Shown here: positions 10,477 through 54,096 of the stretch, piece by piece
Numbering within the stretch: position 1 is the first letter of the stretch
Layout: each line of letters opens with the position of its first letter
Virus record (IMG/VR): IMGVR_UViG_3300029858_000005
Source: a virus
Reading direction: 5' to 3' (one strand)
Length of the DNA: 64,000 bases
Program-made: the position numbers and the translations under genes
The notes under the pieces: model-generated
Told to the model about the DNA's origin: nothing
The model's input: only the letters and a program-made list of their open reading frames with translations
Databases searched by the model: none

Positions 10477-10892
10477 TGGAAATTCAAGGAAAAGTTATTG
10501 CCGTTTTACCTGAAAGAAGCGGCGTCTCTGCAAGAGGTGAGTGGAAGTCTCAGACTTATGTAATAGAAACACAAGAGCAATATCCTAAGAAGATGGCCTT
10601 TGATGTTTTCGGAGCAGACCGTCTGGCTCAGTTCAACATTCAGAGTGGTGAGGTTATTAACGTTAGCTTTGATATTGATGCACATGAATATCAGGGCAGA
10701 TATTTTAATCAGATTCGTGCCTGGAATGTTACTAAGGTGTCACAACAAGCAGCACAACAAGCTATGGCAAGTCCTGCTAATGCTGCTGGCGTGGCGAACC
10801 CGACGAATCAGCAAAATCTGTTTCCACCTGAACAGCAGTCTGCACAGCAGCAAACACAGCAACGAGGGAACTCTGATGACCTTCCCTTCTAG
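10476..10892 (+). CDS. DUF3127 OB-fold protein, SSB-like, with SSB-type acidic C-terminal tip
   Basis: The N-terminal ~85 aa (MEIQGKVIAVLPERSGVSARGEWKSQTYVIE...) match DUF3127. A Q/A-rich linker follows, and the protein ends ...SDDLPF, like the bacterial SSB tip DDDIPF. Confidence 0.65.
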   Translation: MEIQGKVIAVLPERSGVSARGEWKSQTYVIETQEQYPKKMAFDVFGADRLAQFNIQSGEVINVSFDIDAHEYQGRYFNQIRAWNVTKVSQQAAQQAMASPANAAGVANPTNQQNLFPPEQQSAQQQTQQRGNSDDLPF

Positions 10893-30900: not shown

Positions 30901-33900
30901 TAACGTAACCATCAAGTGACTGATGACTAGTTAAGAACGTACTACCTTTAACTACGCTGATAGTAGTACCATCCTTGGTGACAGACGTAACCGCATTACC
31001 GCTACCGCTGACAGAAATAGCAGTAGCACTACCACCTTCCAAGCTGGAGATACGAGAATCAAGAGCCTTAATAGAGTAGGCAGAAGCTATCTCAGACAGC
31101 GATTCTGATGTAAGCTTCAAGGCATTTGAATAACTCTTCACACTGCCGTTCAAGCCGCCACCACCGCCCGTGGTAGATGCTCCTGCTCCGTATGCCGTGA
31201 TACCGCCTGTGGCATAGAGATTACCATCAATTTTGATAGCCTTGTTTGTGGAATCATACGTGAGCTTAATGCCATGGAAGGAGATTGTACCCTCGAATGT
31301 AGCATCGCCCGATACGCCAAGTTTAGAGAATGGAGCGTTTGGCTTCAAAGACACAAGGTCGGCAACGCTCGTTCCTGCACTTCCTTCCTTCCAAGTCGGC
31401 TCGAAGAAGATGAGGTATGCGCCAAGATTCTTTTCGCTGATGATAAACGATGTCGGGTCTGCGTGAACCTTTCCGCTCACATCCCACCAGATAGCACCAT
31501 TGGCAAGATAACCAGAGCCATCGAAGCGGATGAGGGAGGTTGCAGGGGTAAGATTTCCGCTATTATAGTCCTTATCCACCATCTGACCGCCCCACCATGT
31601 TGCGATACTCTTCTTACCTCTGTTCGGGTCTATTGCTCCGTTGATACCGCTCTGAACGTTTCCGTCTCCGTCTCTCAGCGCAAGGAGCGTTGTCATTACA
31701 AGACCACCGTCAATATCTGTAGTCTGACCGAGCGCATCCTTGAGATACTTGTAACCTGCGAGGTCTGTGATATTCTGCTTCAAGTCACCATATATCTTGC
31801 TAGTGATATAGGCGTTTGCCAAGCCAAGTTTGTCATAGAATGCGCTGTATGTGGACTGAAAGTTGGTGAACTTCGTTCCCACGGCTGAGACGATAGTAGC
31901 CTTGCCGTTTGTATCAGACGCATTGTATCTTGCTGATATATCTGAGAGATACGTAACGAGTTCCGTCTTGGCAGTCGTGAGGGTAGCAAAAGCGGTGTTG
32001 AGGTCGGTGAGTTCCTTGGTGTTCGTCAGCACCTCTGCTTCCTTCACCTCATTGTACGACTTCTGTGCTGCCGCAAAATCATCCTCAAGTCGCTTAGAAT
32101 CCTGCGCCATTGCCGCAATCTCGGAAGGCTCCAGGTAGCCATCGGTAACATAATTATCGAATTCCTTCTTGTTATCAGTGACCGTCTTTCCGAGGTTCGT
32201 AATGTCTGTCTGTGCGGTCTGTGCCGCCTTCTGAGCATTTTCTGCCGCCTTTTTGGCTGCGTTGGCAACGGTATCATCGGTGTATTTAGATGCTTTAATC
32301 CAATCACCGATGGCGAACTGAGAACCAGCCGCTTTGTTAGTCTGACAGCGCAATACCTCATTCTTGTAGGTACTGCCGTCAGAAGGATAAGTGGCATTAA
32401 CCCATATATCGCCAACCTGATAAGGTGTCGTAGGCTGAACGCTGAACACCTTCATTTTCCCGTTTGCGGTCTCCTGTGCCATTCTTGCATCGGAAAGGGC
32501 TTTGGCGATGTCGGTATCTGTAATTATAGTCCACTTATAGGTGTTGCTATCCTTGGCAAAGCGGTATGCCTTGCCCGTCTTGTTGTCGTAGTAAAGGTCG
32601 CCAAGATGGATTTCTTTATCCTTATCGGTCTTCCAACTGATGGCTGGGGCATTCTCCAAGGTAGGAACACCATCATAGAACCACGTTTCGATAGCACCAT
32701 CCACCTGATTCTGCAAGTCGGCAATCTTCTTGAAATACTGAGACAATTCCTTGCCATCCACAGTGGATTTAGCGGAAATCTTAGCCTTAACAGACATTTG
32801 CTTAGTGCTGCTATCATATCTGATATAAGAGCTGCCCTCATAGCCATTCTCCTTTGTAGGTCTATCACCTACATACATATCACCATAGACGTTGAAGAAT
32901 GCCTTGTTATTCTGCTTATTCACACCATATTCCACGTACTCCCTATTGGCAAAGGAATAGCTGTTGATGCCGTGATAGAGGCTGATGGATGGCGAATAGG
33001 TATCTACCGCCGAGAAGATAAGGCAGTTCTGACGTTCTACATCGGTTCTGTTACCGCACTGATTGAGTACATCACCTTTAGCAGGAACATCGCTTGCCGT
33101 AGCGCAATCGGTATCAGAGAGGTCGATATAATGATATTTCTTTCCTTCCAACTCTACTGGTTCCTCGTCACGACCGATTACCAATCGCCAATAGAAGTGA
33201 TTACCAGCCTTGTGATAAGTACCCTTGCGAACGTTGAATGATTCCGAGCGCACTTGGTCGTTAACCGCGAAGTCGTTATCTACCTCATCACCATCCTGCT
33301 CTGCTAAGAAATAGCAACGATAAGCCTTCTGTGACACATTATTGTATGTCACAGTAACCTCTTCTACCTTATGAGCCACCACGCCGCCAGCAGGAGAGAT
33401 TATCTCCTTACCACCGATGGTGGATGTTTTATTGATAACCAGCTCCTCGAAGATAGCCTTCATTCTTACCTCCAAGTAATCTGTGATGAGGTGCGAACGA
33501 CCTTCTGCATCGGGAGTCCACGACCCTCCACCGACAAGCAATCCCTGCAAGAACTTCTGCACCTTTTCCCAAGTGATGGTGCCGTTGGCTATGTCATCGT
33601 TTATCTTTGAGATGAAGTGCTTACTTCCCTCTGTTGCAATCTGGCCTTTGACTTGTGTAGTTGTCAAGCCTGCACCTGTTCCGCCATTTCCACTTTGGAG
33701 CGACGATATCTGCTGTTGGATCTTCTGGATAGTTCCAACCTCCTTATCCTCGCGAAGAGTTATATCGTAGGTAGGAATCTTACCATCTTCTTCCTTGATT
33801 GTGAGCTGATCTATGGATATTACACCGCCAATTCTGAGGTCAGTATCCTCAAACTCCATCAAGTCTCCGGCTTTGAGCGTATCATGAAGACTCTTGATAA

Positions 33901-35872
33901 CTCCTGTAGTATCCTTTTCAGCAAGATCATGCTGCCTTGCCATGAAAATCTCATCAACCTTAGGCTGATAGACGTACCTTGTGTAGTCGTTCTTGTCAAT
34001 GAATGCTATGGCGTATTTAAGGAGCTTCAGAGACGCAGCATTGACATACGAATCAGGAAGTGTGATGCCGGTAAGAACGAAATGGTCGCCTTTCTTGATA
34101 GGGTAGTCCTTGTATGGAAACCAAAGCTCAAGAGCGTCGTCCTTTACTCTTTCAATAGTAAGCCTCCATCTTCCATCAATCTTGGTTGAGGATGCTACCT
34201 TGAATGTTCGTCCGCCACACATACCATCCTTCATCGAGATGGAGAAGTCGTCATCCTTTAAGTCGTTGATATCAAAATCGATAGCCTTTTTAAGATAGAT
34301 ATCAACATTCTTTACGGTTTCATTATCGCCAAATCTTCCGTCATCATCAGGAGCCACACCCTCATCAATCTCATCAACACGTACGCCACCGATTTCCATC
34401 TCCTCGATAGTAGGGTAGATTTCAATAACTCCATTTGTCTTATCATCTGTTTCAAAGAACTGCGATGCAGAACGAAGACCAATCTGCTCGATGTTGATAG
34501 AATCGATGTATGGCCTGTGCGGATCTGTGGAGAATTTATGCTGTCTCCCGGTAGGATTCACGTACTTCTTCTCTTTATCCGTGAGTGTGTTATAGAAATC
34601 ACTCAGCGATACATGAGGGAATCCAGGCAACATAAGTCTGTTGATGGACATGTTGTTCGGAAGATTCTTTGCGTACTCCTTCATGGACGAAGGAACATTT
34701 TTCTTGTTGAGGCCCGATGTGATATACATCTTTGTGTTTCCGGCCTCGACCTGCGCAATAAACGCATCAAGCTTCTCCTTTGACTCCTCATCTCCGGTGT
34801 CAGTCTGTGTTCCCTTCAGCTCAGAATAGAATCTACATTTTTTAGAGCCGTATCCCTGTGTTACATAACCGGTAATCTCAGTCTTGAAATCAAATGTAAC
34901 CTTAAGTACCCAACCGGAAGACTGCTCGCCAGTTTCTGGAGAAACAATATACTTTCTCGGATTCTTGAAATATGTCTCTATATAATCGAGGTCCAGTTCA
35001 AGTTCAACATTCGTGCTGGCTCCGACGACTTTCGTGATGTTCGCCACGTACTTGACACCGAGGTCAGCATAGTAGTGGGAAGGAAGATTCTTCTCGGAAC
35101 CATAGGCTCTCAATCTCGTAACGACACTCTGGTCGGAATCAGCGTTCTGAACAATCTCATATAATCCATTACCGAGGCCATACTTGAAGATATGGCTTGC
35201 CTGTATTCCGGTAGTACCGACATAGATGTTTCTTCCTCTGACGATGAAGTTTATGTCCCACTTCTCGTTCACAAGCGCAAGGGCCTGCCAACAGGTCTGC
35301 GAATCCACTGTAATGGACATCGATTCGATGACGTTATCGTCGGTTTTCTCACCATAAACCGACAACCACTCACTTTCAAGGGCTCCACGCTGAACGGAAC
35401 GGTCCTTGTTTCGGGAGTAAATCTTCCAAAGACCTGCACCAATCTGCTCGTTTAAGCATGCCTGGATTCTGTCTAGCAAATCATCCAAAGTCTGTACATA
35501 GAATGGAAATTTCGGCAGGGCAGTGTAGTGAAGCTCGTTATCGTTCAATACCACATCGAGGAACTCTGCCCTGGCAAGCTCATCCTGCAATGCATTGAAC
35601 TTTACGCTGTCATATACGAAGCCCTCACCGTAGGTGTCAGGTCTTGCCTGCTTATCTTTGCCCGGCTCGTAGTTGAGCTCAAACCGCTCGCCACGATAGA
35701 CAATATAGTCGCCTATCTGAAAGTTGATAGGCACTTCATGCTTGAAGTTGATAGTCAAAAAACACTCACCCATCCAGGAATCAGAGTACTCCAATCCATG
35801 AACGGTTATCTGCTCTCCGTTAACGTCTGTCAGCTTCGAGCCATCCTTATGATAAATATTCCAAGCGCTCAT
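27995..35872 (-). CDS. giant tail-associated (Tal-like N-terminus) / tail-fibre protein with C-terminal S74 intramolecular-chaperone domain
   Basis: 2625-aa uninterrupted ORF directly downstream of the Dit-like and tape-measure genes. It has repeats SVSGSGNA(V/I)TSV..K...FLTSHQSL and a C-terminal ...YQSSDIRLKQD... autoproteolysis motif. Confidence 0.85.
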   Translation of the reverse strand: MSAWNIYHKDGSKLTDVNGEQITVHGLEYSDSWMGECFLTINFKHEVPINFQIGDYIVYRGERFELNYEPGKDKQARPDTYGEGFVYDSVKFNALQDELARAEFLDVVLNDNELHYTALPKFPFYVQTLDDLLDRIQACLNEQIGAGLWKIYSRNKDRSVQRGALESEWLSVYGEKTDDNVIESMSITVDSQTCWQALALVNEKWDINFIVRGRNIYVGTTGIQASHIFKYGLGNGLYEIVQNADSDQSVVTRLRAYGSEKNLPSHYYADLGVKYVANITKVVGASTNVELELDLDYIETYFKNPRKYIVSPETGEQSSGWVLKVTFDFKTEITGYVTQGYGSKKCRFYSELKGTQTDTGDEESKEKLDAFIAQVEAGNTKMYITSGLNKKNVPSSMKEYAKNLPNNMSINRLMLPGFPHVSLSDFYNTLTDKEKKYVNPTGRQHKFSTDPHRPYIDSINIEQIGLRSASQFFETDDKTNGVIEIYPTIEEMEIGGVRVDEIDEGVAPDDDGRFGDNETVKNVDIYLKKAIDFDINDLKDDDFSISMKDGMCGGRTFKVASSTKIDGRWRLTIERVKDDALELWFPYKDYPIKKGDHFVLTGITLPDSYVNAASLKLLKYAIAFIDKNDYTRYVYQPKVDEIFMARQHDLAEKDTTGVIKSLHDTLKAGDLMEFEDTDLRIGGVISIDQLTIKEEDGKIPTYDITLREDKEVGTIQKIQQQISSLQSGNGGTGAGLTTTQVKGQIATEGSKHFISKINDDIANGTITWEKVQKFLQGLLVGGGSWTPDAEGRSHLITDYLEVRMKAIFEELVINKTSTIGGKEIISPAGGVVAHKVEEVTVTYNNVSQKAYRCYFLAEQDGDEVDNDFAVNDQVRSESFNVRKGTYHKAGNHFYWRLVIGRDEEPVELEGKKYHYIDLSDTDCATASDVPAKGDVLNQCGNRTDVERQNCLIFSAVDTYSPSISLYHGINSYSFANREYVEYGVNKQNNKAFFNVYGDMYVGDRPTKENGYEGSSYIRYDSSTKQMSVKAKISAKSTVDGKELSQYFKKIADLQNQVDGAIETWFYDGVPTLENAPAISWKTDKDKEIHLGDLYYDNKTGKAYRFAKDSNTYKWTIITDTDIAKALSDARMAQETANGKMKVFSVQPTTPYQVGDIWVNATYPSDGSTYKNEVLRCQTNKAAGSQFAIGDWIKASKYTDDTVANAAKKAAENAQKAAQTAQTDITNLGKTVTDNKKEFDNYVTDGYLEPSEIAAMAQDSKRLEDDFAAAQKSYNEVKEAEVLTNTKELTDLNTAFATLTTAKTELVTYLSDISARYNASDTNGKATIVSAVGTKFTNFQSTYSAFYDKLGLANAYITSKIYGDLKQNITDLAGYKYLKDALGQTTDIDGGLVMTTLLALRDGDGNVQSGINGAIDPNRGKKSIATWWGGQMVDKDYNSGNLTPATSLIRFDGSGYLANGAIWWDVSGKVHADPTSFIISEKNLGAYLIFFEPTWKEGSAGTSVADLVSLKPNAPFSKLGVSGDATFEGTISFHGIKLTYDSTNKAIKIDGNLYATGGITAYGAGASTTGGGGGLNGSVKSYSNALKLTSESLSEIASAYSIKALDSRISSLEGGSATAISVSGSGNAVTSVTKDGTTISVVKGSTFLTSHQSLDGYVNAISVSGSGNAITSVSKSGKGITFTKGATFLTSHQSLANYYTKSSVDSLLSGKSATSHTHSVKINGVTKTIAASGGAAVDLGTYLTSHQSLNGYATQSWVKSQGYLTSHQDVSILNMANDRYYSNNAYGINMRNSDIIGVNSVYTQDLSDSPTEAILFCRSNGNYDGIRAANGVLYFSNNVVRTTSKYDAEYEVYHKGNLTKLSQLTNDKNFVTGSVSGQTITINGVSTTWQNTWRGITDSYSGTSTGTSLSQKGANSLYNALHNGYASSAGNSDTVDGYHASGLLTALSNSDKGISITVGGTTKSISNISVNYASSAGNADTVDGLHGTDGRTFNGNINWSPNWNDVWSDGTNKHPWYGFDHRYPNTGAYSTTITDYFGMTIKTANTLRLDYGKLLLNGTDIHNINVASATKLAAARTIWGQSFDGTGNVNGTIYINNSDSENGAIILNNNVNANARISAIKDQVVFNTGAAIRFGAADWEYSDWAGLKYDTVANAIYLGIADGTVFNYYSNKRSNGTLKFPGITTITPDAGARIGGSGGDLYLGNANNSNWVKVQDICSHNGSNYWYIYQNGNAHFTSIDINSGATFNGPVKVNNMLTARGTMFTTSDSNVYGTSLQNWDGSIGANVTNMFNGIPQDNIQVEYSTDNGASWNTYPGNPENRFNLVNDNVRVFNYFLGSDNMIGNTEADKLAQIKKNQLRVTVKIPDEIYQELSWISIDVNNGVDIKCQVYFGSSTGGYKEYVSKIIKGWAHKCDICVGPLNVNVGNDTYRYVRLVFSHPSNNTNLRNGIVVKIRALALTKYSYNGDRYTISTTGHIYDYDAYMNTYFPNSILAKGGVTAYQSSDIRLKQDLRKLDYLGIIKAMGGTFSFAWKKDNTRSIGWIAQHVLCNPHLKDIVETDEKGYYKINYWSPKLIATAFGAIEQVGDEVSRLKARVVFLESEVLRLSGDKEDCNKKRLDNKNINLLN

Positions 35873-36964: not shown

Positions 36965-39900
36965 TTATTTCATTTTTAAAGATTTCGTACCATTGATAAC
37001 TCTGTTGAAGTTATCGTTATACTCAATGAAAATTTTCTCGATTCTCTCTGCTGCATCTGCATTGCGCAAGGTATTCCTAGCAATAAGGTTGAGCTGCGTG
37101 AGCTGAGATTTTGAAATCTCGCTCATCTCAGGAAGGAACTTGCCCTGCATTTCCCTGATTACAGAGACATCAAGTCTAATCGCGTTAAGATAGGATGCAA
37201 AAAGATCACCTGTCTCCTCGGTAATGCCTTTTATCGAGTTGGTCAAAGAGGAACTTCCGTTTTCTCTCAAATCAAGTCCCTTTTCCTTTAGAGCATCGAA
37301 GATACCGGTTAACTGAGGAACTACATTTTCGCCAACTTGGTAGAGCTTGTCAGCAAAATCGTCCATGTCGGTCTCATCAAGTTTACCCTTTTCATCAAGG
37401 ATACCTGTAAGCCATTCGAGAGGTTTTTCAAGTGCCTTCTCCATGATTTTCTGAGATACAATATTCTTCGTAACTTCGCGAACCATTTCCTTGACCTTAT
37501 TCTTGTAAGCCTCAACCGCATCTTCCCCCTTAGTCCATGCGCTTACAACAGTATCAGTCAGCTGATTTCCCCAACTCTTCATATCGATAGAGTAAACGTC
37601 TTTAAGGAAGTCCTGTGCGAACGTCTTAATCTGCAACTGCATCTCCTTGATTTGCTGGTCGTAGTCAGCAATCTTATCCTTGTCCGTCTTTTTCTTATCC
37701 TCCTCAGCTTGTCTCTGCTTTCTCAACTCGTCTTCCTGAGCGTGGAGTAGGGCGAGCTGATCTGCGTATGCGGAAGGATTCGTCTCTGTCTTCATTACAG
37801 CGTCATAAGTCTCCTTGCTGTAGTGACTGAAGTTGTGACCTCCAAAGAAATTCTTTCCAATATCTGTCTTAGAAAAAGAATCCCAAGCCTTATAGTCATT
37901 CTTGACATCGTTGAGCTTTTTATTCGCATCGGAAGACCTATTGTAAGAATAGATTCCACCGAGTGTCTTTTCAATAACGGAACTGATATTGCTAGATAGG
38001 TTCTTCAATTCATTCAGCTGTCTCTCTGCAAGCTTTATCTGTCTGTCGAGCTTGGCATCATGAGCCTTTGCAAACGCCTTAATAGGAGAGGTAAATATGC
38101 CAGTGACACCGGCAAGGATTCCACCAACGTTGCCGGACTCCGCGCTTGTTACCACCTTTGACAGTGAACTTGACATGCCGGAGAATGTCTCGAAGAACGC
38201 AGAAGCGTCCTGCCATCCATCAGACTCAGTGTCAGCTCCGAGAAGGGAAGCAGTCTCTTTGATGTCATTGAATGCTTCACTCATTCCCTGGACATTCTGG
38301 TCGATAATACTTACTACGTTAGCAAACTTATCAAGAGACTCCTTTGCTTTTGTTCCATCCTTAAACAGAATCTCAGCAGCTTTCATCATAGCCTTTCCGC
38401 TGTCAATCATGCTGTCACCACGCTTGATGAAGTTTTCGTCTCCCATTTTGAGACCAAGTTCACGAACCTTCTTTCCTTCAGCAATTTTACTTGCTGCGAT
38501 GGTCATCTGCTCGCTGGCATCAGAAATCTTCTGCTCAGCCATTCCCTTCAGGCCACCATTGAGGAAAGTCTTCTTTGGACTCGTCAGCTTCGATAACTGC
38601 TCATCAAGCTGCTTGATTTCCTTGGCGTACTCTCTAGCATCAATGGCTCCGCTTTGTAGAGCCTCATTGATATTCTGCCTGATTCTTGCTCCGATAGTCT
38701 GAGCCTTATCCATACCGAGAGACACGATGGCTCCGTAGAAGTTGAGATAATCAGAAGAGTTCTTGAACTTGTCAAGCTTAACCTGACCAATCTCCTTGTC
38801 TCTCTGAATCTCATATCTCGCCTTGATGCCAGGATCATTCGTCTTGCTGATAAGCTCGTTGTATCTCTCCCTTATCTTCAAGATTTTATCCTCATAATCT
38901 TCTGTCTTCTCAATGATGTCGGCGGCATCTTGCAAAGACTTAACATAATTACCACGGAGGAGTTCTGTAATTTTTTTCCACTCTTCGTACTGATTTGGCT
39001 GCTTAAGCTTTTTCTCAGCTTCTCCGTCAGTCATGCTGAGAGAATCCTGAAGATTGAATATCTCATGGTAGTGAGCGTAATACTCGTCCATAAGAGATTG
39101 AGTCTTGTCATCCATCTGGAAAGCGTCAATCCATGCGGACTCAGCAAAGAACTTGCTGCCTGTCTTTTCGAGAAGACTCTTGTACAAATCCCAACGTTCT
39201 GACAGCTTGTTCATGGACTCATTGAAGTCAGCTGCCTTTCTCTCATACTCCTTCTTGTCCTTCTCGTCGAAGAGCCACTCTGCAACCTCACGATAGATGG
39301 AAGTTTGGAACTTCTTTCTCTCGGTGGTGTTTATACTGAATCCTTCAAGGAGAGAATGGACAGCCTTCTGATAGTCGTCAAGATTAAGACCGGTAACCTC
39401 CGGGAAGAGATTATAAGTCTTCTTCTTTGCCTCTTCATCAGACATTATGCTCTTGTACTTCTGATACATCTGCCTTGCAGACTTCAAGCTGCTAAGGCGT
39501 TCCTGCAAGCGTTTGAGCTCAGTATCTTCTTCGCGACCATTCTTGTTTTTACCCTTACCGAAGTGACCAGTAACCTTATTCTTTCCTACATCAAGACTTA
39601 TTCCAGACTGAGCCGCTATTGCTTCAAGCATTCGCTGCTCCCTTACGTATGGTTGCCTGTCGCCTGCATTCTTTGCATTGTCGTTCTCGTCACGGACCTC
39701 CTTATATCTCTTTCTTACAGCCTCTCCGAATGAAGTCCATCCGTTACTATTTCCTCCATTCAGATTGTGGAGATACTCGGCCATTTCCTTCTGCCAGAAA
39801 CCACCTGTTCCTCCTTTAAGCTTTCCTGCCTTTTGTAGCTTGCCGAAGACTTTTCTTTCGATAGTTCCTACTTTGTTAGGGTTCTTCCAAACTTTTGGAC

Positions 39901-42900
39901 CAGTATTGCCTTCTTGTGGCTTTGCTTTTCCTATGTTCAAAATAGCCATAGCTACGCTTTGAAGTCTCGCTACAAGACCAGGAACTTTCTTGTTCGCCTC
40001 AGATAACATTTGGTCAAGCATGGTTCTGAACTTATCCGGGTGCTGTTTGCACCACCTTGAGAACTCAACCATGTCCATATTCCTACTCTTGGCCATATAT
40101 TCGAGATATTTAGGAATATCGTCGGTAGCTATCTCGCCGAAATTCGCTCCAAAATGCCGAAGGTCGTCTTCCAAATTTTCAAGACTTCCCTTCATGTCTT
40201 TGTTTCCGTTGCTTACTTTGTCAACAAAGTGACGCCAGGTTGCAGCCCCTTTTCCGCCAGTTGTATATAGCGTGTATAGTTTTTCCTCGAATGTCATACC
40301 TGCCGCCCTTGCTCCAAGCATCGAGTTTGCCACTTTCTCCATAGAGCTTTTTGTGGAATCGCCGAATTTCTCCATCTTCATCTGGAGCTGAGCAAGGTTC
40401 CCTGCGACGTCGTTTATGTTCTCGTCAATATCGTCTTGACCGATACCAGTCCATTGGCCGAACCAACTTGCTCCACCTGCGAATCCAGCACCAGAAGCCT
40501 TCTTTGCCTTTGCGAAGTTCTCTCCTTCGCTTGGAGTGAAATTATTCTCATTCCTAGCGTCAATGATTTTCTGTTTTAAGATATCATACTCCTTGCCGAG
40601 GTCATCAGTACTATCTATCTGTTCCTTAATGGAGTCTGTATAGAGTCCGCTCTGTTTAAGGACATCAGTCATCTTGTCTACCTGTTGCTGAAGAGCCTCG
40701 CCAGTGCCTTTATTGCCAACTTCCGATAACGTATCAGATAGTGTCTTTACTGTTGTTTTTGCAGTCTCGTTTATCCTATCGGTATCCTGTTTGATGCTGT
40801 CCTTGAACTGACTATATGCCGAATACAGAGCCGTTCCTATAGTAATACCAAGTGTTGCAATATTCCATCCTGAGAAGAATCCTCCAAGCTTTCCTTTTGC
40901 CTGGTTAACAGCAAGCGACATTCTTGCCCTTGTTCCTTCTTTAGTTATAAGCTCGGACTCCTTTGCGCTTATCATACCCATAAGGCGAAGCTGTTCGATC
41001 ATCTCCTTGGATATTAGACCCTCGCGGAAAGCTTTTTGCATCTTCAACGCGCTAAGTCTTCCCTCTAGTGCAGCTTGCTCTACAGCATTTCTGGTAATAA
41101 TCTTGCTATTCAGCATTCCCTGGTAGTCAGCAATATTCTGCCTCATTATTTCCTGGGTTATCTTACCCTCAATGAGAGCTTGCTGCTGCTCTACGGCGAA
41201 AGTTCTTAGCTTTACCTGTTGTTCAGCACGCAAAGCTGCAAGGTTACTGCTTATACCAACTCTTGAAGCAATGGCTGTCGCACCCTTACGCAAAGCATAC
41301 ATAGCACCGAATGCAAGTGCTGCGTTAGAGACCTTATCCAAAGCCAAAACCAAATCTGTTGTTCTATTAATAAGGAATGAGAAAGTACCTCCGACAACAC
41401 TCTTACCTTCTGCGAACTTTCCAAGCATAATGTCCCAGGCATCAATGAGCTTATTCCATCGACCAAGCAATGTTTCGGACAGAACGAACTGCATGTTGTA
41501 GAACTGGCCTCCCTCGTCTGTCATTTTCCAAAGCACTTTCTGGACATCCTCAAAGCTAACCTGTCTAGCACTAATCATCTTCTTGACATCTGCCTGGGTA
41601 TAATTGTTCCTTCCGTTCTTTCCTTCTGAGTTATAAAGCTCAGTGATTCTCTGCAAAAGAGGAAGACCGGCGTAAGCAAACTGGCGCAACTCCTTACCAT
41701 CGAGCCAAGAACGAGCCTTTACCTGGCCGAATGCCAAGCCCAATCGTCCGAAGTCTACGCCAAGACCAGATGCAATATCCGCAAGTCGTTTTGTGGTATC
41801 ATACAAGTCATTTGCTTCGACTCCGAATGCAGCCAGCTGCTTTACATCTCGGTTCAGCTCTCCAAACTTGAATGGAGACTGCAACGCAAGCTGCTGAGTC
41901 TGAGCGAATAATTCGTCCGCCTTCTGCACATCTCCAAGGATAGAACGCAACGCAACATGCTGCTGAACAATCTCACCACCGGTCTGTACGATTGAATTAA
42001 AGAATTGCTGTGCGCCAAAGACAATACCTCCCTGTAAGAAGAGAGACTTGATGTCTCCGACTATGGATTGCATCTTCTTCGCTTCAGCGTTTGCTCCGGC
42101 GAATGCTGAAGCAAGGTCGTTTCGTGCTCTTGCAGCAGACTGAGCAATTTCCTGCTGACGCTTCTGTTCAAGCTCGATACCTTTCTGAACCTCTTGGTTT
42201 ACTGCTTTCTGATCTTGAAGAACCCTAGAAGCTAATGTGGTATCGTGGCCACTACCGATATTGCCAAGCATACCGAGGCTATCCTTCCAGTTCTCTGAAT
42301 TAAGTCTTCCCTTGATATTTATAAGGGCTCTCATTAAAGAAAGAAGTCTGTTAATCTCGGCTTCAGCTTTACTAACATCTGCTCCGACAGAAATTCCTCG
42401 GCTGTATTCAGAGCGAAGCTGGCGAACCTTATTGCCGAGAGAATCATACCGACGCTCCGTGTTCTTCAAATCATTCTGGCGTTGTCTCTCTGCCTCTTTT
42501 GCCTCGCGTGCTGCGTCCTTTATAACCTTTGCATAAGTATTTGCTTTATCTATAGCATTAAGATACCCGGAACTCTTTACGATATCAGTTGCTGTGAGTC
42601 CTGTGATAGGATGAATACCTCTGTTATTCCTGATCTGTTCTAACTCAGTTCTGTATTTAGACAGCTCTGACAACGACTGGCGTATGTTGTTCGTTGAATC
42701 GATGCCAAACAACTGTATTCCTTCACCATGGCGTTTGTTGATTTCGTCAATAATAGAAGATAACTTATAAAGTTCTCTCTCTGCCTTGTTTGCCTCAGTG
42801 GAAACACTGTTAGGGAATATGTTGAATCCAGCACCTTCCTTAGACACCTCTCCAAGTATGCGGCCTATTTTGTACAGCCCGTCCTGGACAGACTCCAACT

Positions 42901-43174
42901 GCTGGAGTTTTTTCGAACTGAAGAAATCTTCGCTTGAAAATACGCCAATGTTACGACGTAATTCTTTAACGAAGTTGTTTAGCTTTTCAAAACTACGACC
43001 TCCCTTATCTCCAATACCTTTTGTTGCTTCGGATATTGCTTCCAAAGCATTCTGTGCCTGCTTACCAGTAGAATCAACCTTGTTTAATTCTCTGATAATC
43101 TTTTTGGTTTCCTCTTCAATTCTCGATTTTAGAGTGAGCGAGAAACTGAGGTCTCCCATATTTCCACCTGCCAT
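36965..43174 (-). CDS. tail tape measure protein
   Basis: 2069 aa, largely helical/coiled-coil composition, immediately downstream of the G/GT frameshift pair. Confidence 0.85.
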   Translation of the reverse strand: MAGGNMGDLSFSLTLKSRIEEETKKIIRELNKVDSTGKQAQNALEAISEATKGIGDKGGRSFEKLNNFVKELRRNIGVFSSEDFFSSKKLQQLESVQDGLYKIGRILGEVSKEGAGFNIFPNSVSTEANKAERELYKLSSIIDEINKRHGEGIQLFGIDSTNNIRQSLSELSKYRTELEQIRNNRGIHPITGLTATDIVKSSGYLNAIDKANTYAKVIKDAAREAKEAERQRQNDLKNTERRYDSLGNKVRQLRSEYSRGISVGADVSKAEAEINRLLSLMRALINIKGRLNSENWKDSLGMLGNIGSGHDTTLASRVLQDQKAVNQEVQKGIELEQKRQQEIAQSAARARNDLASAFAGANAEAKKMQSIVGDIKSLFLQGGIVFGAQQFFNSIVQTGGEIVQQHVALRSILGDVQKADELFAQTQQLALQSPFKFGELNRDVKQLAAFGVEANDLYDTTKRLADIASGLGVDFGRLGLAFGQVKARSWLDGKELRQFAYAGLPLLQRITELYNSEGKNGRNNYTQADVKKMISARQVSFEDVQKVLWKMTDEGGQFYNMQFVLSETLLGRWNKLIDAWDIMLGKFAEGKSVVGGTFSFLINRTTDLVLALDKVSNAALAFGAMYALRKGATAIASRVGISSNLAALRAEQQVKLRTFAVEQQQALIEGKITQEIMRQNIADYQGMLNSKIITRNAVEQAALEGRLSALKMQKAFREGLISKEMIEQLRLMGMISAKESELITKEGTRARMSLAVNQAKGKLGGFFSGWNIATLGITIGTALYSAYSQFKDSIKQDTDRINETAKTTVKTLSDTLSEVGNKGTGEALQQQVDKMTDVLKQSGLYTDSIKEQIDSTDDLGKEYDILKQKIIDARNENNFTPSEGENFAKAKKASGAGFAGGASWFGQWTGIGQDDIDENINDVAGNLAQLQMKMEKFGDSTKSSMEKVANSMLGARAAGMTFEEKLYTLYTTGGKGAATWRHFVDKVSNGNKDMKGSLENLEDDLRHFGANFGEIATDDIPKYLEYMAKSRNMDMVEFSRWCKQHPDKFRTMLDQMLSEANKKVPGLVARLQSVAMAILNIGKAKPQEGNTGPKVWKNPNKVGTIERKVFGKLQKAGKLKGGTGGFWQKEMAEYLHNLNGGNSNGWTSFGEAVRKRYKEVRDENDNAKNAGDRQPYVREQRMLEAIAAQSGISLDVGKNKVTGHFGKGKNKNGREEDTELKRLQERLSSLKSARQMYQKYKSIMSDEEAKKKTYNLFPEVTGLNLDDYQKAVHSLLEGFSINTTERKKFQTSIYREVAEWLFDEKDKKEYERKAADFNESMNKLSERWDLYKSLLEKTGSKFFAESAWIDAFQMDDKTQSLMDEYYAHYHEIFNLQDSLSMTDGEAEKKLKQPNQYEEWKKITELLRGNYVKSLQDAADIIEKTEDYEDKILKIRERYNELISKTNDPGIKARYEIQRDKEIGQVKLDKFKNSSDYLNFYGAIVSLGMDKAQTIGARIRQNINEALQSGAIDAREYAKEIKQLDEQLSKLTSPKKTFLNGGLKGMAEQKISDASEQMTIAASKIAEGKKVRELGLKMGDENFIKRGDSMIDSGKAMMKAAEILFKDGTKAKESLDKFANVVSIIDQNVQGMSEAFNDIKETASLLGADTESDGWQDASAFFETFSGMSSSLSKVVTSAESGNVGGILAGVTGIFTSPIKAFAKAHDAKLDRQIKLAERQLNELKNLSSNISSVIEKTLGGIYSYNRSSDANKKLNDVKNDYKAWDSFSKTDIGKNFFGGHNFSHYSKETYDAVMKTETNPSAYADQLALLHAQEDELRKQRQAEEDKKKTDKDKIADYDQQIKEMQLQIKTFAQDFLKDVYSIDMKSWGNQLTDTVVSAWTKGEDAVEAYKNKVKEMVREVTKNIVSQKIMEKALEKPLEWLTGILDEKGKLDETDMDDFADKLYQVGENVVPQLTGIFDALKEKGLDLRENGSSSLTNSIKGITEETGDLFASYLNAIRLDVSVIREMQGKFLPEMSEISKSQLTQLNLIARNTLRNADAAERIEKIFIEYNDNFNRVINGTKSLKMK

Positions 43175-49330: not shown

Positions 49331-51625
49331 ATGCAAAAGGAAGTATTTTCAGGATTAAAATTGGATAACGGTGAGCCTATTTATACTCAAGAGTATATCC
49401 AATCATTAAGAGACGCCGATAAGAAGCATCCCGACAAGCTGAAGATTATAGCTCAGCGTGGCGGTCAGGAGCGCATGCTGTCTATTGATGCAGATATTAA
49501 GATAGTTGGCGGCTCGCGAGGTGGACCTCTGGATGAAGACACGAGAGTGTTAACTACTAGAGGATTCATTAAAATCAAGCATCTTAAATATGGCGACACC
49601 GTAATAGGACATGACGGTAAGGGACATAGAGTATTAGGTCGAATCGATTATCCTGATAGAGATTGCTACGAAATTGAACTATCTGACGGATCGAGTGTAG
49701 TATGCTCGGATGACCATATCTGGAATGTATCTATCGATGGCGACAGGAGATTTATGCCACATCTTGCCTGTGAGATAGCTAGTTACATCAACGAAGGCTA
49801 CGACATCACTATTCCCTGCGTAAAACCTGTAGAGTTTGATGAAAAGTTCGGCCTAGCCTCTGTCGCTGAGAGAACTGAGTCTTTAAGACGTATCATCGAA
49901 ACATCGGGTAGATTTTCCGGAAAATACTGGAAGAAGACTTTCAAGACAAGAAAGAAAGCATTCGATTTCAAGTATCTGGTTGATAGTCTCGGTTCTGTTT
50001 GCTACGTAAAAAGGAAGTCAAACAAGAAATGGGAGGTTCGATTCGATTACAGAAAGAAGGAATTAGAGAGGAGGATTGTCAGCTGTAAACCGGTCGGCAA
50101 GCGAAACTGCTGTTGCATCGCCGTTGAGAATCCGGACTCATTATTCGTTGTCGAGGACTTTATCGTCACTCACAACTCCAAGTCCTTCTCTTCCCTTATG
50201 GAAGTTCTGAAGGATATCAAAAATCCAGATTTCCATGCAACAATTCTTCGTAACGAAAAAGACGACTTGCAGTCCTTGGTGACAGACTCTTACAAATTGT
50301 TCTCCCAATTTGGAACTTACAATAAGTCACAGAACGATATGACCTGGAACTTCGACAACGGAGGATGGCTCAAATTCTCGTACTACGCAGGAGCCTATCA
50401 GGATTTCAAGACACGATTCCAGGGGCGCCAGTATGCCTATGTCTGCATCGATGAGGGTACTCAGTGTCCATACAAGAAGTTCAAGTACCTATTGACCAAC
50501 AACCGAAACGCAGCTCACATACGAAACCGATTCTGGATTACCTGTAACCCTGACCCGGAATCATGGGTGCGAAAGTTCATCGACTGGTGGGTTGACGAGA
50601 ATGGATACATAATACCGGAGCGAGATGGAGTTATCCGCTACTGCTTCATGGATGGTGATACACCGGACTCTATCTACTGGGGTAACACAAGAGAAGAGGT
50701 ATACGAACAGTGCAAGGGCATCATCGATAGCCTCTGGAAGGACAGCTACGAGGAACTTGGATACACGAAGCTCGAAATGTTCATCAAGTCGGCAACATTC
50801 GTTCGCGCTGACGTATCAGAGAATATTAAGCTTATCTCTACCGATGCCTCATATCTCGCCAACCTTGCCCAACAGGACGAGGAACAGCGCATGCGAGACC
50901 TGGAAGCTAACTGGAACTGGAAAGCTGCCGGTGATGACATGATCAAGATGGAAGACCTTGATGAAATCTACGACAATGCAGAACAGATAGGAGATGGAAA
51001 ACGCAGAGCTTCTGCCGATATCGCATTCACCGGAGGCGATAACTTCGTAATGTGGCTTTGGGAAGGATGGCATTGTAAAGACTTGGTTGTTCTGAGGCTG
51101 GACCCTAAGACACTCGTTTCGGTAGTTGAGGCCAAGCTGAGAGAGTGGGGTGTCGAGGAATGTAACTTCACTTACGATATGCAGGGTATCGGTCAGTACT
51201 TTAAGGGATTCTTCAAGGATGCCGTCCCATTCAACAACCAGGCAGCACCTATCGCTAGGAATCATCAGGAAGAAGAAGGAATCAAATACCTATATAAGGA
51301 TTTGAAGTCTCAGTGCGCATGGTTATTCTATAAGATGATAAAAGAGAAGCAGATTTCCATCGACTCGGCCCTGCTTGAAAGAAAGTATTCAGGAAACGGA
51401 TTTGACAAGGTTCCTCTCAGACAGATTCTTCAGAAGGAGCGTAAGATGCTCAGACGTGACGAGAATAGCGATGATAGGGGATTCAAGCTATTACCTAAGA
51501 AGATTGCCAAGAAATATGTCGGGCACTCGCCTGACTTCTTTGAATCTTGGTTCTACGTAATGATATTCAGTTTAACAAAAAAGAAAAATAAAAAGGTAAA
51601 AGGATTATGGATGCTATCAAGGTAA
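49331..51625 (+). CDS. terL: terminase large subunit interrupted by an intein in the Walker A loop
   Basis: The exteins give IVGGSRGG/SKSFSS (P-loop), YVCIDEGTQ (Walker B) and WITCNPD. The C-terminal half is the nuclease domain. Confidence 0.85.
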   Translation: MQKEVFSGLKLDNGEPIYTQEYIQSLRDADKKHPDKLKIIAQRGGQERMLSIDADIKIVGGSRGGPLDEDTRVLTTRGFIKIKHLKYGDTVIGHDGKGHRVLGRIDYPDRDCYEIELSDGSSVVCSDDHIWNVSIDGDRRFMPHLACEIASYINEGYDITIPCVKPVEFDEKFGLASVAERTESLRRIIETSGRFSGKYWKKTFKTRKKAFDFKYLVDSLGSVCYVKRKSNKKWEVRFDYRKKELERRIVSCKPVGKRNCCCIAVENPDSLFVVEDFIVTHNSKSFSSLMEVLKDIKNPDFHATILRNEKDDLQSLVTDSYKLFSQFGTYNKSQNDMTWNFDNGGWLKFSYYAGAYQDFKTRFQGRQYAYVCIDEGTQCPYKKFKYLLTNNRNAAHIRNRFWITCNPDPESWVRKFIDWWVDENGYIIPERDGVIRYCFMDGDTPDSIYWGNTREEVYEQCKGIIDSLWKDSYEELGYTKLEMFIKSATFVRADVSENIKLISTDASYLANLAQQDEEQRMRDLEANWNWKAAGDDMIKMEDLDEIYDNAEQIGDGKRRASADIAFTGGDNFVMWLWEGWHCKDLVVLRLDPKTLVSVVEAKLREWGVEECNFTYDMQGIGQYFKGFFKDAVPFNNQAAPIARNHQEEEGIKYLYKDLKSQCAWLFYKMIKEKQISIDSALLERKYSGNGFDKVPLRQILQKERKMLRRDENSDDRGFKLLPKKIAKKYVGHSPDFFESWFYVMIFSLTKKKNKKVKGLWMLSR
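49526..50176 (+). mobile_element. 217-aa intein (Hint domain with short central insert), class-3-like signature
   Basis: Block A (P)LDEDTRVLT, block B VVCSDDHIW, block F CCCIAVEN, block G FIVTHN followed by +1 Ser. Removing it restores GGSRGG-SKS. Confidence 0.75.
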
Positions 51626-53313
51626 CAAATTTCAGAAAGATTCTCGTAAAGAAGCCTTTCTTTGAACTCACGCCAAAGGGGTACATGACCCACGATGGCT
51701 ATTGCAGGAACGAGGTGTCCGATAATGAAGACCCTCAGATGCCGCAAGATACATTGTACAGAGTGATTAAGACTCAGAAGGACTTCCTTCGTGAGTTCTA
51801 TCCTACGTCCCACAAAATCTTCGACAAGGATCTCTACCCTGACATCTGGAGAAAGAACCCGGAAGACGGGAAATGGTATGTCCAGGAGATTCAAAGAACG
51901 GCATTTGCTTTCCAGCAAGTTATTCATACGAAGCACGTTCTCCACATGACAGGTAACGATATTCAGTTTGAGCTTGCCGGTGATCCTGAGATGAAGAAAC
52001 AGGAAGAGTATATTAATCTTCTTGCCAAGTTTAAGAAGGGATGGTATATGCACGATATGGAGATTCGCCACTATGAGGCTGTAAGTTCGTACATGAAGGT
52101 TGCTGAGGCTGCTGTAGTCGGATTCTTCGATAAAAACAAGAAATTCGGTACTCGCACATTGGCTTTCGATAGAGGAGACACATTGTATCCTCAGTTCGAC
52201 CCTCTTACTGGTGAACTCGTTGTGTTTGCTCGCAAGTATTACGACTTCGATGAGGAAGGCAATGAAAAGATTGAATGGGTAGAGGTGTGGGATGACAAGA
52301 CATTCTACCGCTTCAAGAAGCAAGTTAACGAAGGCAAGGTCAAGGAGACTATCAAGAGAATTGCCAAGATATTCGGAATCGACGACTACACTTGCGTTGA
52401 AGAGAAAGCTCACGGCTTCCCATTTATCCCTGTTGCATACGTAAGAAACGATGACGGCCCATGCTGGTCTGTTGTGCAGAAGAACATCGAGGACTACGAG
52501 GAAGCTTTCTCTTATCTCTGCGAGAACAACAAGGCTTACGCCTTCCCTATAATGAAGTTGAAGGGCGATGGTGACGACATTACCGTTGTTGGAGATACAG
52601 ACGGATCGGCTAAGATGATTCAGATTACCGATACGAATGGTGATGCTGACTTCATTAACGGAACAGACGCTTCCGATGCATTTGCGACACAGCTCAACAA
52701 GTCGTATGACCTCATCTATGAGCTTTCGTTCACAGTAAAGCCACCGGAGCTGAAGTCGGGTGACCTTCCGGGCGTTGCCATCAAGCTGCTCTATTCTCCT
52801 GCTATCGAGGTTGCAGAGAACGATGCCAAGAAGATGCATCCGTTCCTGGATCAACTTGTTCGTATCTCAAAGTATGGTATCGGAGTTGAAGAAAACTGCA
52901 TGGCCACTATGACCGGTCTTCCTATTCACGCTTGGGTGGAAATCTATGTGCATCAGAATAAATCTGAAATAATAACAAACTTAGCGACAGCTGTTCAGAA
53001 CAACTTCCTCTCAAAGCAGACTGCATCTGAGCGTTGTCCAGACTTCCCAGTTAACGATGAATACGACCGTATCATGCGCGAGAAGAAGGAAGAGGATCAG
53101 CAGGACCTACTCATGGATATTCAGCGTGCGGATAACGAAACTCAAAATGCAATCGAGGAGCAGAAAGCTACTGCGAATATTCAGAATGGAGGTAGTGGAA
53201 ACGTACGTACGGGTCGCGGAGCTGGACGCCCAAATAAGTCAGGAACCAAATGGGACGAGAATCGGAACGCCCCGAATGAGAACAACTGGCAGCACTACAA
53301 TCAAACCCATTAA
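51607..53313 (+). CDS. portal protein
   Basis: 568-aa ORF that overlaps the terL stop by 19 nt. Size and position are typical, with an acidic/Gly-rich C-terminus. Confidence 0.75.
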   Translation: MDAIKVTNFRKILVKKPFFELTPKGYMTHDGYCRNEVSDNEDPQMPQDTLYRVIKTQKDFLREFYPTSHKIFDKDLYPDIWRKNPEDGKWYVQEIQRTAFAFQQVIHTKHVLHMTGNDIQFELAGDPEMKKQEEYINLLAKFKKGWYMHDMEIRHYEAVSSYMKVAEAAVVGFFDKNKKFGTRTLAFDRGDTLYPQFDPLTGELVVFARKYYDFDEEGNEKIEWVEVWDDKTFYRFKKQVNEGKVKETIKRIAKIFGIDDYTCVEEKAHGFPFIPVAYVRNDDGPCWSVVQKNIEDYEEAFSYLCENNKAYAFPIMKLKGDGDDITVVGDTDGSAKMIQITDTNGDADFINGTDASDAFATQLNKSYDLIYELSFTVKPPELKSGDLPGVAIKLLYSPAIEVAENDAKKMHPFLDQLVRISKYGIGVEENCMATMTGLPIHAWVEIYVHQNKSEIITNLATAVQNNFLSKQTASERCPDFPVNDEYDRIMREKKEEDQQDLLMDIQRADNETQNAIEEQKATANIQNGGSGNVRTGRGAGRPNKSGTKWDENRNAPNENNWQHYNQTH

Positions 53314-53319
53314 TAGCCT

Positions 53320-54096
53320 ATGGATGAATTAAAACGTTCTGTCGATTACAGCAGGAAGCGCTTGCAGGCAATCCGAAACTGCGAGGGCCATGTTGCTGAT
53401 ATCCTCTGGAAAACGACGCAGAAGGTAATTACCGCAAGTAAGCGATACAGAGGCGCGGGCAGGCTCACAAACGAGTCAGCCCTGCTCTCTTACGCCAAGA
53501 ATGTTACTGCTGAGGCCGAGGAGAGCATCAATACCTATATCTCTGCTTACTCCAAGGCTTCATGCAAGATTCTCGGGATTGACAGCGAGAACATCGAATC
53601 GTTTCTCGTCAGCGACATCTACGGAAAGACGACATCTGAAAGAAACGCTGTCTATCTCGGAAACTTTGCTGAAGATATTGTAAGGATGATCAAGGCAGGA
53701 ACCTTGATGGAATATTCAGACCAGCAGCTCCTGTCTTCCATCCGCACAGGCTATAAAGACCCATATCACACATCAGTCATCACCAAGGCGAAGAGAAAGG
53801 ATATTAACATCGATGTTCCTTCTTACGGAAAGGGCTACTACAAGAACGCCTATCAGAATATCGTAAGAAATGCTTCTCAAGTGATTGCTTTGGCGTGGGG
53901 ACAGGCAGAGCAGGAGTATGGACAGGAGAATAAGGCTATCGGATTCTATGTCAAGAGAGGAAGCAGTTATCCTTGTGATATCTGTCAAAGCGAAGCCGAT
54001 GCCGGCCTCCATTCTTTCAAAGACCCATATCCGCCATTTCACGTTTCGTGTTGTTGCTACACAGTATTTGCATTCAAGGATAATAAAAAGAAATAA
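53320..54096 (+). CDS. head morphogenesis protein (SPP1 gp7 / Mu F-like)
   Basis: It follows the portal. The C-terminal YPCDICQSEADAGLHSFKDPYPPFHVSCCCYT resembles the Mu-F family ...P.H.NC.C motif. Confidence 0.65.
   Translation: MDELKRSVDYSRKRLQAIRNCEGHVADILWKTTQKVITASKRYRGAGRLTNESALLSYAKNVTAEAEESINTYISAYSKASCKILGIDSENIESFLVSDIYGKTTSERNAVYLGNFAEDIVRMIKAGTLMEYSDQQLLSSIRTGYKDPYHTSVITKAKRKDINIDVPSYGKGYYKNAYQNIVRNASQVIALAWGQAEQEYGQENKAIGFYVKRGSSYPCDICQSEADAGLHSFKDPYPPFHVSCCCYTVFAFKDNKKK

Follow-up and report, generated by a model that had tools for sequence, protein, structure and literature searches.

Sequence and modeled structure make it very probable that the large terminase subunit (TerL) encoded in IMG/VR virus record IMGVR_UViG_3300029858_000005 is interrupted in its Walker A loop by a splicing-competent class 3 intein, descended from a LAGLIDADG homing intein whose endonuclease activity has been lost. 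The window, the 64,000-nucleotide stretch of this record that we analyzed, contains a TerL open reading frame (ORF) in which the Walker A loop, GGSRGG/SKS, is broken at the slash by a 217-aa insert at nt 49526-50176. The coordinates and residues reported in a first-pass annotation of the DNA, for the ORF (49331-51625) as for the insert, all agree with the sequence. The features are as follows.

49331-51625, + strand: TerL precursor ORF, 764 aa, 89.2 kDa, with a match to Pfam Terminase_6N (E 1.2e-12)
49331-49525, + strand: N-extein (aa 1-65), whose last residues, ..GGSRGG (aa 60-65), form the first Walker A half
49526-50176, + strand: class 3 intein by sequence and predicted fold, 217 aa, 25.1 kDa, from Pro1 (TerL Pro66) to Asn217 (TerL Asn282)
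49526-49555, + strand: block A (PLDEDTRVLT), with Pro1 and Leu2 invariant in all lineages at the site
49664-49666, + strand: intein Cys47 (TerL Cys112), aligned with Cys48 of Msm DnaBi1
49697-49723, + strand: block B (VVCSDDHIW, aa 123-131), with Ser61 (position 7), His64 (position 10, TerL His129) and Trp66 (position 12, TerL Trp131), all three invariant
49838-50059, + strand: degenerate LAGLIDADG half-domain, intein residues ~105-178
50108-50131, + strand: block F (CCCIAVEN, aa 260-267), with invariant Cys195 at position 2 and Cys197 at position 4
50159-50179, + strand: block G (FIVTHN/S; FIVTHN is aa 277-282), with Thr215 (position 5), His216, Asn217 and the +1 residue Ser283
50177-51625, + strand: C-extein, aa 283-764, comprising the remainder of the ATPase as well as the nuclease domain

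The insert opens with a CCT codon for Pro66 (49526-49528) and is followed directly by SKSFSS (aa 283-288). Its +1 residue, Ser283, is also the Walker A residue immediately preceding the Lys, and Ser occupies the equivalent place in an intein-free LoVEphage TerL (GGCRGGSKT). Splicing would leave a mature terminase of 547 aa and 64.1 kDa (computed). An SPP1-type portal gene lies 3' of the TerL ORF, at 51607-53313. The phage carrying the interrupted gene is of the human-gut Bacteroides type, and its group is LoVEphage-like. Splicing at the RNA level was considered and rejected, as an Rfam scan of the window returned only tRNAs and no intron, and the TerL ORF is continuous. Apart from that ORF, no ORF of at least 60 aa lies within the intein on either strand.

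Empty alleles fix the boundaries of the insert. Relatives with ~100% identical exteins (P0046 and others) read GGSRGGSKSFSS with nothing inserted between, and in near-identical phages the uninterrupted TerL is 547 aa long and carries GGSRGGSKS. Such intein-free relatives, which the first-pass annotation had proposed as a check on its reading, make up 19 of the best 120 matches. In one intein-free contig (L001) the DNA is 95.5-96.8% identical, and exactly the 217-aa segment is absent. Around the insertion site, the DNA of the empty allele runs ..GGTTCGCGAGGCGGC up to the junction and TCAAAATCGTTC.. beyond it. From this allele, the boundaries fall at Pro66 and Asn282, with Ser283 at +1. The claim that no Cys or Ser stands in the residues before the junction was mistaken, as Ser62 lies four residues upstream; the empty allele assigns this Ser to the extein. 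The presence of an in-frame insert is far beyond chance. In the phage collection, the sole match to near-identical DNA was a 315-nt fragment. Window and empty allele also differ by six synonymous changes within 22 nt of the insertion site; we rejected endonuclease resistance as their explanation because the same region varies among other alleles, which leaves no clear sign of such resistance.

By all of the sequence and fold tests run, the insert is a class 3 intein. Searched against the PDB, the family profile found as its top match a gp41-1 variant with a grafted W-C-T triplet (6riz, E 1e-15), followed by the natural class 3 inteins 6rix, 6riy and 6bs8 (E 2.5e-10 to 1.2e-9), with H-x-W, Cys and THN in register. 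The AF2 model of the intein has a pLDDT of 95.4, and its top Foldseek matches are the class 3 inteins MchDnaB-1 and Msm DnaBi1 (target-normalized TM-scores of 0.79-0.87); the best 50 PDB matches are all inteins or BIL domains. Curated Pfam and NCBIfam models gave only sub-threshold matches (Hint_2 with E 0.0077, intein_Nterm with E 0.016), so the assignment rests on PDB sequences, the family profile and the predicted fold. The blocks proposed at first pass hold in the PDB and family profile alignments but are not recovered above cut-off by the curated Hint and intein models. That an intein sits in the TerL P-loop is borne out by the fold prediction, by Hint profile matches and by the existence of an empty allele.

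Four intein lineages occupy this insertion site, with lengths of 137 aa, 139 aa, 217-226 aa and 362-370 aa, and P1, L2, S61, D63, H64, W66, C195, C197, T215, H216 and N217 are invariant across them. Every one of the 100 intein-bearing homologs has H216, N217 and Ser+1. Position 1 bears no Cys, Ser or Thr nucleophile in any intein at the site, being always Pro. The W-C-T triplet W66/C197/T215 is in register with 6rix, 6bs8, the W-C-T-grafted gp41-1 and the MP-Be DnaB intein of mycobacteriophage Bethlehem, the class 3 prototype (Tori et al. 2010, PMC2807308), as is the block B H-x-W with 6rix, 6bs8 and MP-Be. The earlier reading of a class 3 signature behind Pro1 is upheld by this alignment and by the invariance of the triplet. 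BLASTP against MP-Be gave an E value of 1e-8 and aligned P1 with P1, H64/W66 with H65/W67, and C197 with C320. The novelty that had been implied for Pro1 disappears, as MP-Be, the founding class 3 intein, has the same residue; Pro is also found at position 1 in ~32 of 198 W-C-T relatives. At +1, these 198 relatives have Thr (123), Ser (64) or Cys (11). The block F cysteine had been given as any of C260-262; a Cys does stand there, but position 4 is specifically Cys262, the third of the run (intein Cys197, nt 50114-50116), and from sequence this is the predicted nucleophile.

Splicing of the window intein, and its passage through a block F thioester, are likely by analogy with the tested prototype. 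The Pro1 MP-Be intein splices efficiently and requires Cys320, His65 and Trp67, and a branched block F thioester intermediate that depends absolutely on the position-4 Cys is known only from tested members of the class (PMC2807308). Here, the Cys197 thiol would attack the Gly65-Pro66 bond at the carbonyl of Gly65, the -1 residue, with the help of block B residues His64 and Trp66, leaving the N-extein on a thioester branch. The N-extein would then be transferred to the hydroxyl of Ser283, cyclization of Asn217 would free the 25-kDa intein, and an O-to-N acyl shift would yield GGSRGGSKS and restore an ATP-binding terminase. A class 2-like route, in which Ser283 attacks the Gly65-Pro66 amide directly without a block F thioester, would fit with Pro1, which excludes the class 1 first step, as an N-terminal nucleophile is missing from class 2 inteins too (PMC2807308). 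We consider this route highly improbable: class 2 (KlbA-type) inteins have no W-C-T triplet, whereas W66, C197 and T215 are all present and invariant here, the nearest sequences and structures are all class 3, and in the Pro1 prototype both C320A and C320S abolish splicing and cleavage alike (PMC2807308).

Within the class 3 route through Cys197, splicing might be conditional. Oxidation could lock Cys197 in a disulfide with Cys47 or with Cys195/Cys196, such that TerL would mature only under reducing conditions, for example, inside an anaerobic Bacteroides cell. In Msm DnaBi1, a reversible disulfide between the catalytic Cys118 and Cys48 blocks splicing (PMC6195587); Cys47, which aligns with that Cys48, does not vary within the 217-aa lineage, Cys195 is the same in every lineage at the site, and the 217-aa intein contains nine cysteines. 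Against such a lock, Cys47 is not conserved in the 369-aa lineage, being Ala or Ser there and in some 139-aa inteins at the site, and class 3 relatives at large often have Cys at block F position 2 (41 of 198). We regard this lock as unlikely; it would refine, not replace, the explanation offered above.

Selection and intact reading frames support splicing indirectly. The same 217-aa form occurs in 69 IMG/VR loci at 65-100% identity, and all are in frame with catalytic residues intact. The intein is under purifying selection, with dN/dS at 0.06 compared to 0.04 for the extein, and with values of 0.03 over the C-terminal splicing region and 0.09 over the half-endonuclease domain. That the insert is a decayed, nonsplicing relic, in a terminase gene that is either defunct or functions with the insert retained, is suggested by the clear decay of the endonuclease part and by the weak matches to curated Hint models. 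The low dN/dS and the 69 intact loci argue against it, as do the 1195 member sequences of the protein cluster and the position of the insert, which divides the Walker A loop in an ATPase essential to packaging, and we give such a relic very little credence.

LAGLIDADG endonucleases of inteins have either two motifs (blocks C and E) or a single motif combined with dimerization, each motif ending in an acidic catalytic residue (Asp or Glu) ahead of the Gly. When the window intein was tested for such a homing endonuclease, the block C half was found to be absent, and the fold of one half-domain alone survives. In the AF2 model, this half-domain has an alpha-beta-beta-alpha-beta-beta topology (H113-126, E129-131, E134-139, H142-154, E159-165, E168-174), and a Foldseek match to PI-SceI has a query-normalized TM-score of 0.71-0.73. 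No Pfam LAGLIDADG match was found at E<=1. The second motif reads IIETSG instead of LMDTDG, block H reads FKYLVDSLGSV, and relatives have SNTG, NTQG, ATCG or RFHL in block E. With the catalytic Asp of the second motif gone, the endonuclease is predicted to be inactive, and with the first half also deleted, the intein would be unable to home on its own. The first-pass description of the central region as the remnant of a single LAGLIDADG motif is confirmed by the modeled topology and by its alignment with the second endonuclease half of the 369-aa sister intein. The 217-aa intein very probably descends from a LAGLIDADG homing intein and has since lost the endonuclease activity. A more elaborate scenario, in which Cys47 and Cys195-x-Cys197 form a redox switch that ties packaging to the reducing state of an anaerobic host and the half-endonuclease is kept for a role beyond folding, is more doubtful still than the disulfide lock by itself.

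Sister inteins of 369 aa (LAGLIDADG), 137 aa and 139 aa (mini-inteins) share the insertion point GGSRGG/SKS with the 217-aa form and the empty allele. They have Pro1, W-C-T and THN/S like the 217-aa form, and exteins up to ~100% identical. Both LAGLIDADG motifs, acidic residues included, persist in the 369-aa form, which is probably still mobile; compared to it, the 217-aa form lacks residues 130-226 and carries Ser where the second catalytic Asp would stand. As the Hint parts are only ~34-36% identical, the forms are old lineages rather than recent deletion products. In their C-terminal blocks, the 217-aa form and the 369-aa form are nearly identical. Recent gene conversion was rejected as the cause, since DNA identity there is only 66-83%, which points instead to selection at the protein level.

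Because its Pro start is that of the first class 3 intein described, the window intein is an ordinary addition to a known class, and it adds no new mechanism to intein biology. In annotation, the 764-aa ORF should be treated as two products, a terminase of 547 aa and an intein of 217 aa, and the intein should be taken out before terminase trees of these abundant gut phages are computed. Closely related LoVEphage-like phages offer a natural series at one site, comprising the empty allele, two kinds of mini-intein, the half-endonuclease form and the full homing form, each known from clusters that contain hundreds to thousands of metagenomic sequences. Such a series would lend itself to work on how inteins are gained, decay and are lost in a cycle, and on splicing across a Gly-Pro junction.

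Class 3 inteins in terminase large subunits and in ATPase P-loops were described in 2009-2010 (PMC2807308). MP-Be resembles the window intein in its Pro-Leu start, in the two-residue spacing of the block B His and Trp, in a block F Cys ~20 residues ahead of the C-terminal T-H-N, in a hydroxyl +1 residue, and in a LAGLIDADG-type insert. In phage Bethlehem, MP-Be is located in gp11 and not in the gene annotated as DnaB-like. The gp11 gene is found just 5' of the portal gene and encodes a TerL nuclease domain, which places the MP-Be intein in a large terminase as well. Unlike the window intein, MP-Be is 341 aa long with a full two-motif endonuclease, and its site (Q/T, with Gln at -1 and Thr at +1, where the window has Gly and Ser) was placed by eye ~40 residues C-terminal to KGWGKD, a P-loop-like motif, in a TerL lacking the Terminase_6N match seen in the window. 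The two inteins are ~33% identical from block A to block B.

The solved class 3 mini-inteins M. chimaera DnaB-1 (6rix, 6riy) and M. smegmatis DnaBi1 (6bs8) share W-C-T and insertion into an ATPase P-loop with the window intein; they are its best structural matches and among its best sequence matches, and DnaBi1 also has Ser at +1. They differ in an Ala1 start, the lack of an endonuclease remnant and a bacterial DnaB helicase host, and structure-based identity is 15-19%. In mycobacteriophages, TerL1-c, -d and -e are class 3 inteins in TerL (Kelley et al. 2016, PMC5050341); the TerL1-a and -b sites of that study, which lie in the P-loop, occur in terminase_1 proteins. The class 3 TerL inteins of Acinetobacter phage TaPaz and Parabacteroides phage PF672P2 also lie in the Walker A loop, and that of PF672P2 has a block F C-x-C and a closely similar LAGLIDADG block H, as in the window. 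Both differ from the window intein in a site two residues later (GK/T), an Ala1 start and a full endonuclease.

The large terminase (TerL) gene of the window is interrupted in its Walker A loop, and the motif positions assigned in the first-pass annotation are all borne out in its open reading frame:

49331-51625, + strand: TerL open reading frame, 764 aa
TerL residues 60-65: GGSRGG
TerL Pro66: codon CCT at 49526-49528
TerL His129-x-Trp131
TerL Cys260-262
TerL Thr280-His281-Asn282: ends at nt 50176, followed by Ser283

The frame contains a Terminase_6N domain, the N-terminal domain of T4-type large terminases (Pfam, E 1.2e-12, TerL residues 284-527), and an SPP1-type portal gene lies directly 3' of it. 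Among 1281 relatives from 5.8 billion proteins, the GGSRGG-to-SKSF segment was measured in the best 120, where insert lengths form discrete classes of 137 or 139 aa (44 proteins), 217-226 aa (38) and 362-370 aa (18); the intein-free TerL that the annotation proposed looking for is present in 19. Intein-free proteins read GGSRGGSKSFSS, with identity to the window's flanks of up to ~100% (protein P0046), and L001, a contig with the empty allele, matches the window at 95.5% and 96.8% DNA identity on the two sides with exactly the insert missing. Because these relatives and L001 lack precisely that segment, sequence comparison places the insert at exactly Pro66 to Asn282. The N-terminal Pro and C-terminal Thr-His-Asn occur in 100 of 100 inserts among the best 120 relatives. 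The annotation had seen no nearby Cys or Ser upstream of the junction, which needs correction, as Ser62 sits four residues upstream, but it belongs to the extein.

All 78 differences between the window and L001 terminase exteins are at third codon positions. Six synonymous differences lie within 22 nt around the insertion point (window 49512-49534 and 50177-50185, L001 6183-6204), compared to an extein average of about one per 21 nt. This cluster could reflect co-conversion or target-site divergence, and other alleles vary there too.

Assignment to class 3 is supported by an alignment (A1) of 19 diverse inserts that includes every length class. Invariant in A1, in intein numbering (TerL residue minus 65), are P1, L2, T10, G13, G55, S61, D63, H64, W66, C195, C197, F207, T215, H216 and N217. 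Position 1 thus lacks a nucleophile throughout, while block B has His at position 10 and Trp at position 12, block F has Cys at position 4, and block G has Thr at position 5 ahead of the C-terminal His-Asn. Searched against all PDB sequences, the A1 profile matched best to 6riz (gp41-1 with a grafted Trp/Cys/Thr, or W-C-T, motif; E 1e-15), with other top matches to wild-type gp41-1 (6qaz) and to the class 3 inteins M. chimaera DnaB-1 (6rix, 6riy) and M. smegmatis DnaBi1 (6bs8), and in these the H-x-W pair, the Cys of block F and T-H-N all line up. The annotation had left the block F residue within Cys260-262; the run is present, and these alignments refine the position-4 residue to the third Cys, TerL Cys262. 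An AlphaFold2 model using A1 (pLDDT 95.4, pTM 0.89) retrieved the two class 3 structures first from the PDB by Foldseek (TM-score 0.79-0.87 normalised to target), with gp41-1 next. The block assignment stands in the profile comparison. The sole weak point of the assignment is that the Hint and intein models curated in Pfam and NCBIfam stay below their cut-offs. The observation of a P-loop intein with Pro1 and a W-C-T signature is confirmed, and its interpretation as class 3 is supported.

Searching 1.84 billion representative proteins exhaustively with a profile gave 17,918 matches, and the best 150 proteins contain 216 intein domains, 198 with W-C-T. Of these 198, 116 have Ala at position 1, 32 have Pro and 10 have Gly; the profile alignment was extended back to its beginning to infer this position, which makes those counts approximate. 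At +1, 123 have Thr, 64 Ser and 11 Cys, and at -1, 121 have Lys and 19 Gly.

In M. smegmatis DnaBi1, a reversible disulfide between catalytic Cys118 and Cys48 blocks splicing under oxidative stress (PMC6195587). Redox-conditional terminase maturation in this phage of an anaerobe is conceivable, because the window's Cys47 aligns with Cys48 and Cys195, next to the nucleophile, is invariant in A1. We consider it improbable, however, as the lineage of the 369-aa sister intein lacks Cys47 and many relatives have Cys at position 2 of block F (41 of the 198 W-C-T domains in the best 150 proteins).

For the class 3 route, homology with the tested prototype, the mycobacteriophage Bethlehem intein (MP-Be), leads us to expect four steps. 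Cys197 would attack the Gly65-Pro66 bond to form a thioester branch, the N-extein would be transferred to the Ser283 hydroxyl, cyclisation of Asn217 would free the intein, and an acyl shift would restore GGSRGGSKS. The +1 Ser is native to this family of terminases; LoVEphage TerL, which has no intein and is 58.7% identical, reads GGCRGGSKT.

An IMG/VR scan found 69 loci with the same 217-aa form (65-100% identity, contigs of 11-92 kb), all 69 with the frame intact and no stop codons, and 87 of the 217 residues are invariant, every catalytic residue among them.

dN/dS by Nei-Gojobori, 18 diverse sequences
Whole intein: 0.06
N-terminal splicing part: 0.07
Endonuclease remnant: 0.09
C-terminal splicing part: 0.03
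C-extein: 0.04

The packaging ATPase is essential and the insert interrupts its Walker A loop, so constraint of this kind is expected of an intein able to splice; the low dN/dS argues against the intein being a dead relic, and splicing itself is inferred. In loci L044 and L045 (2501-3151), dN to the window is ~0.05 in the N-terminal splicing region and ~0.26-0.28 in the endonuclease remnant, a contrast that suggests recombination inside the intein.

The proposal that the middle of the insert is a remnant of a single LAGLIDADG motif also holds. In BLASTP, the window's intein aligns with the 369-aa form in two stretches (E 4e-16 and 6e-16), its residues 1-109 matching 1-129 and its residues 107-217 matching 227-369; because they skip 130-226, the first LAGLIDADG half is missing. 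LRRIIETSG lies opposite the second motif, IIQGLMDTDG, and FKYLVDSLGSV opposite block H, VKFLVNSLGG. Model residues 113-174 form a single helix-strand-strand-helix-strand-strand unit that superposes on PI-SceI (Foldseek TM-score 0.71-0.73 normalised to query). The catalytic Asp before Gly is Ser in the window and Thr, Gln, Cys or others in relatives, some of which have also lost the Gly, and a dead endonuclease is predicted for the window's intein. The 369-aa form may still be homing, as both its motifs keep their acidic residues and Pfam LAGLIDADG_3 is present.

Just after the portal gene, L001 has an extra 325-aa gene (9508-10485; compare window 53213-53398) with NUMOD4, NUMOD1 and I-HmuI-like domains, which resembles a free-standing homing endonuclease and has no counterpart in the window; L076, another relative, has a 207-aa NUMOD1-type gene (7726-8349) at this position. 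Selfish elements appear to concentrate in the terminase-portal module. Elsewhere in the window, ARAGORN calls six tRNA genes at 1280-2855, three of them accepted at the Rfam gathering score, with odd calls including Ser-ACT, Pro-AGG and one two-base anticodon; together with a 413-aa RtcB RNA ligase gene (16907-18148, Pfam E 6.9e-64), these could make up a set for supplying and repairing tRNAs. A 2625-aa frame (27995-35872, - strand) has at its end a Peptidase_S74 intramolecular chaperone domain, as tail fibres or spikes typically do, and a 2069-aa frame (36965-43174, - strand) has no Pfam match.

Pro1 with W-C-T, the combination that gave the finding its unusual look, is how the founding class 3 intein was described and so is already known: the Bethlehem "DnaB" intein starts with Pro1, splices efficiently and absolutely requires Cys320, His65 and Trp67 (Tori et al., PMC2807308). 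MP-Be matches the window intein at E 1e-8, and the two correspond at Pro1, at the His and Trp and at the Cys of block F. We located it in Bethlehem gp11 (903 aa; AY500153, L080 7260-9971) as AAVSQDQ/PLALNT...ILTHN/TKNTF, slashes marking junctions; the annotated DnaB-like gp62 has no intein. Because gp11 carries a TerL nuclease domain (Pfam) and the portal gene lies just downstream of it, it is a large terminase, which makes the prototype itself a terminase intein. The Bethlehem record annotates gp11 as a hypothetical protein. Class 3 terminase inteins have been described in mycobacteriophages (PMC5050341) and actinobacteriophages (bioRxiv 10.1101/2025.01.02.630785). In two annotated phages, Acinetobacter phage TaPaz and Parabacteroides phage PF672P2, a class 3 intein with an Ala start interrupts this loop two residues further on (GK/T). 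In PF672P2 (OP172820, L003 2764-5604), the large terminase is a 946-aa "hypothetical protein" whose Walker A loop holds an unannotated class 3 LAGLIDADG intein, GGGK/ALIIS...CRCIKV...VVTHN/T, related to the window's. A non-systematic look at the literature found no mention of the GG/SKS site. The window's intein is a further member of a well-described kind, particular only in that site, in its half-endonuclease architecture and in its host phage group, human gut relatives of Bacteroides phage LoVEphage.
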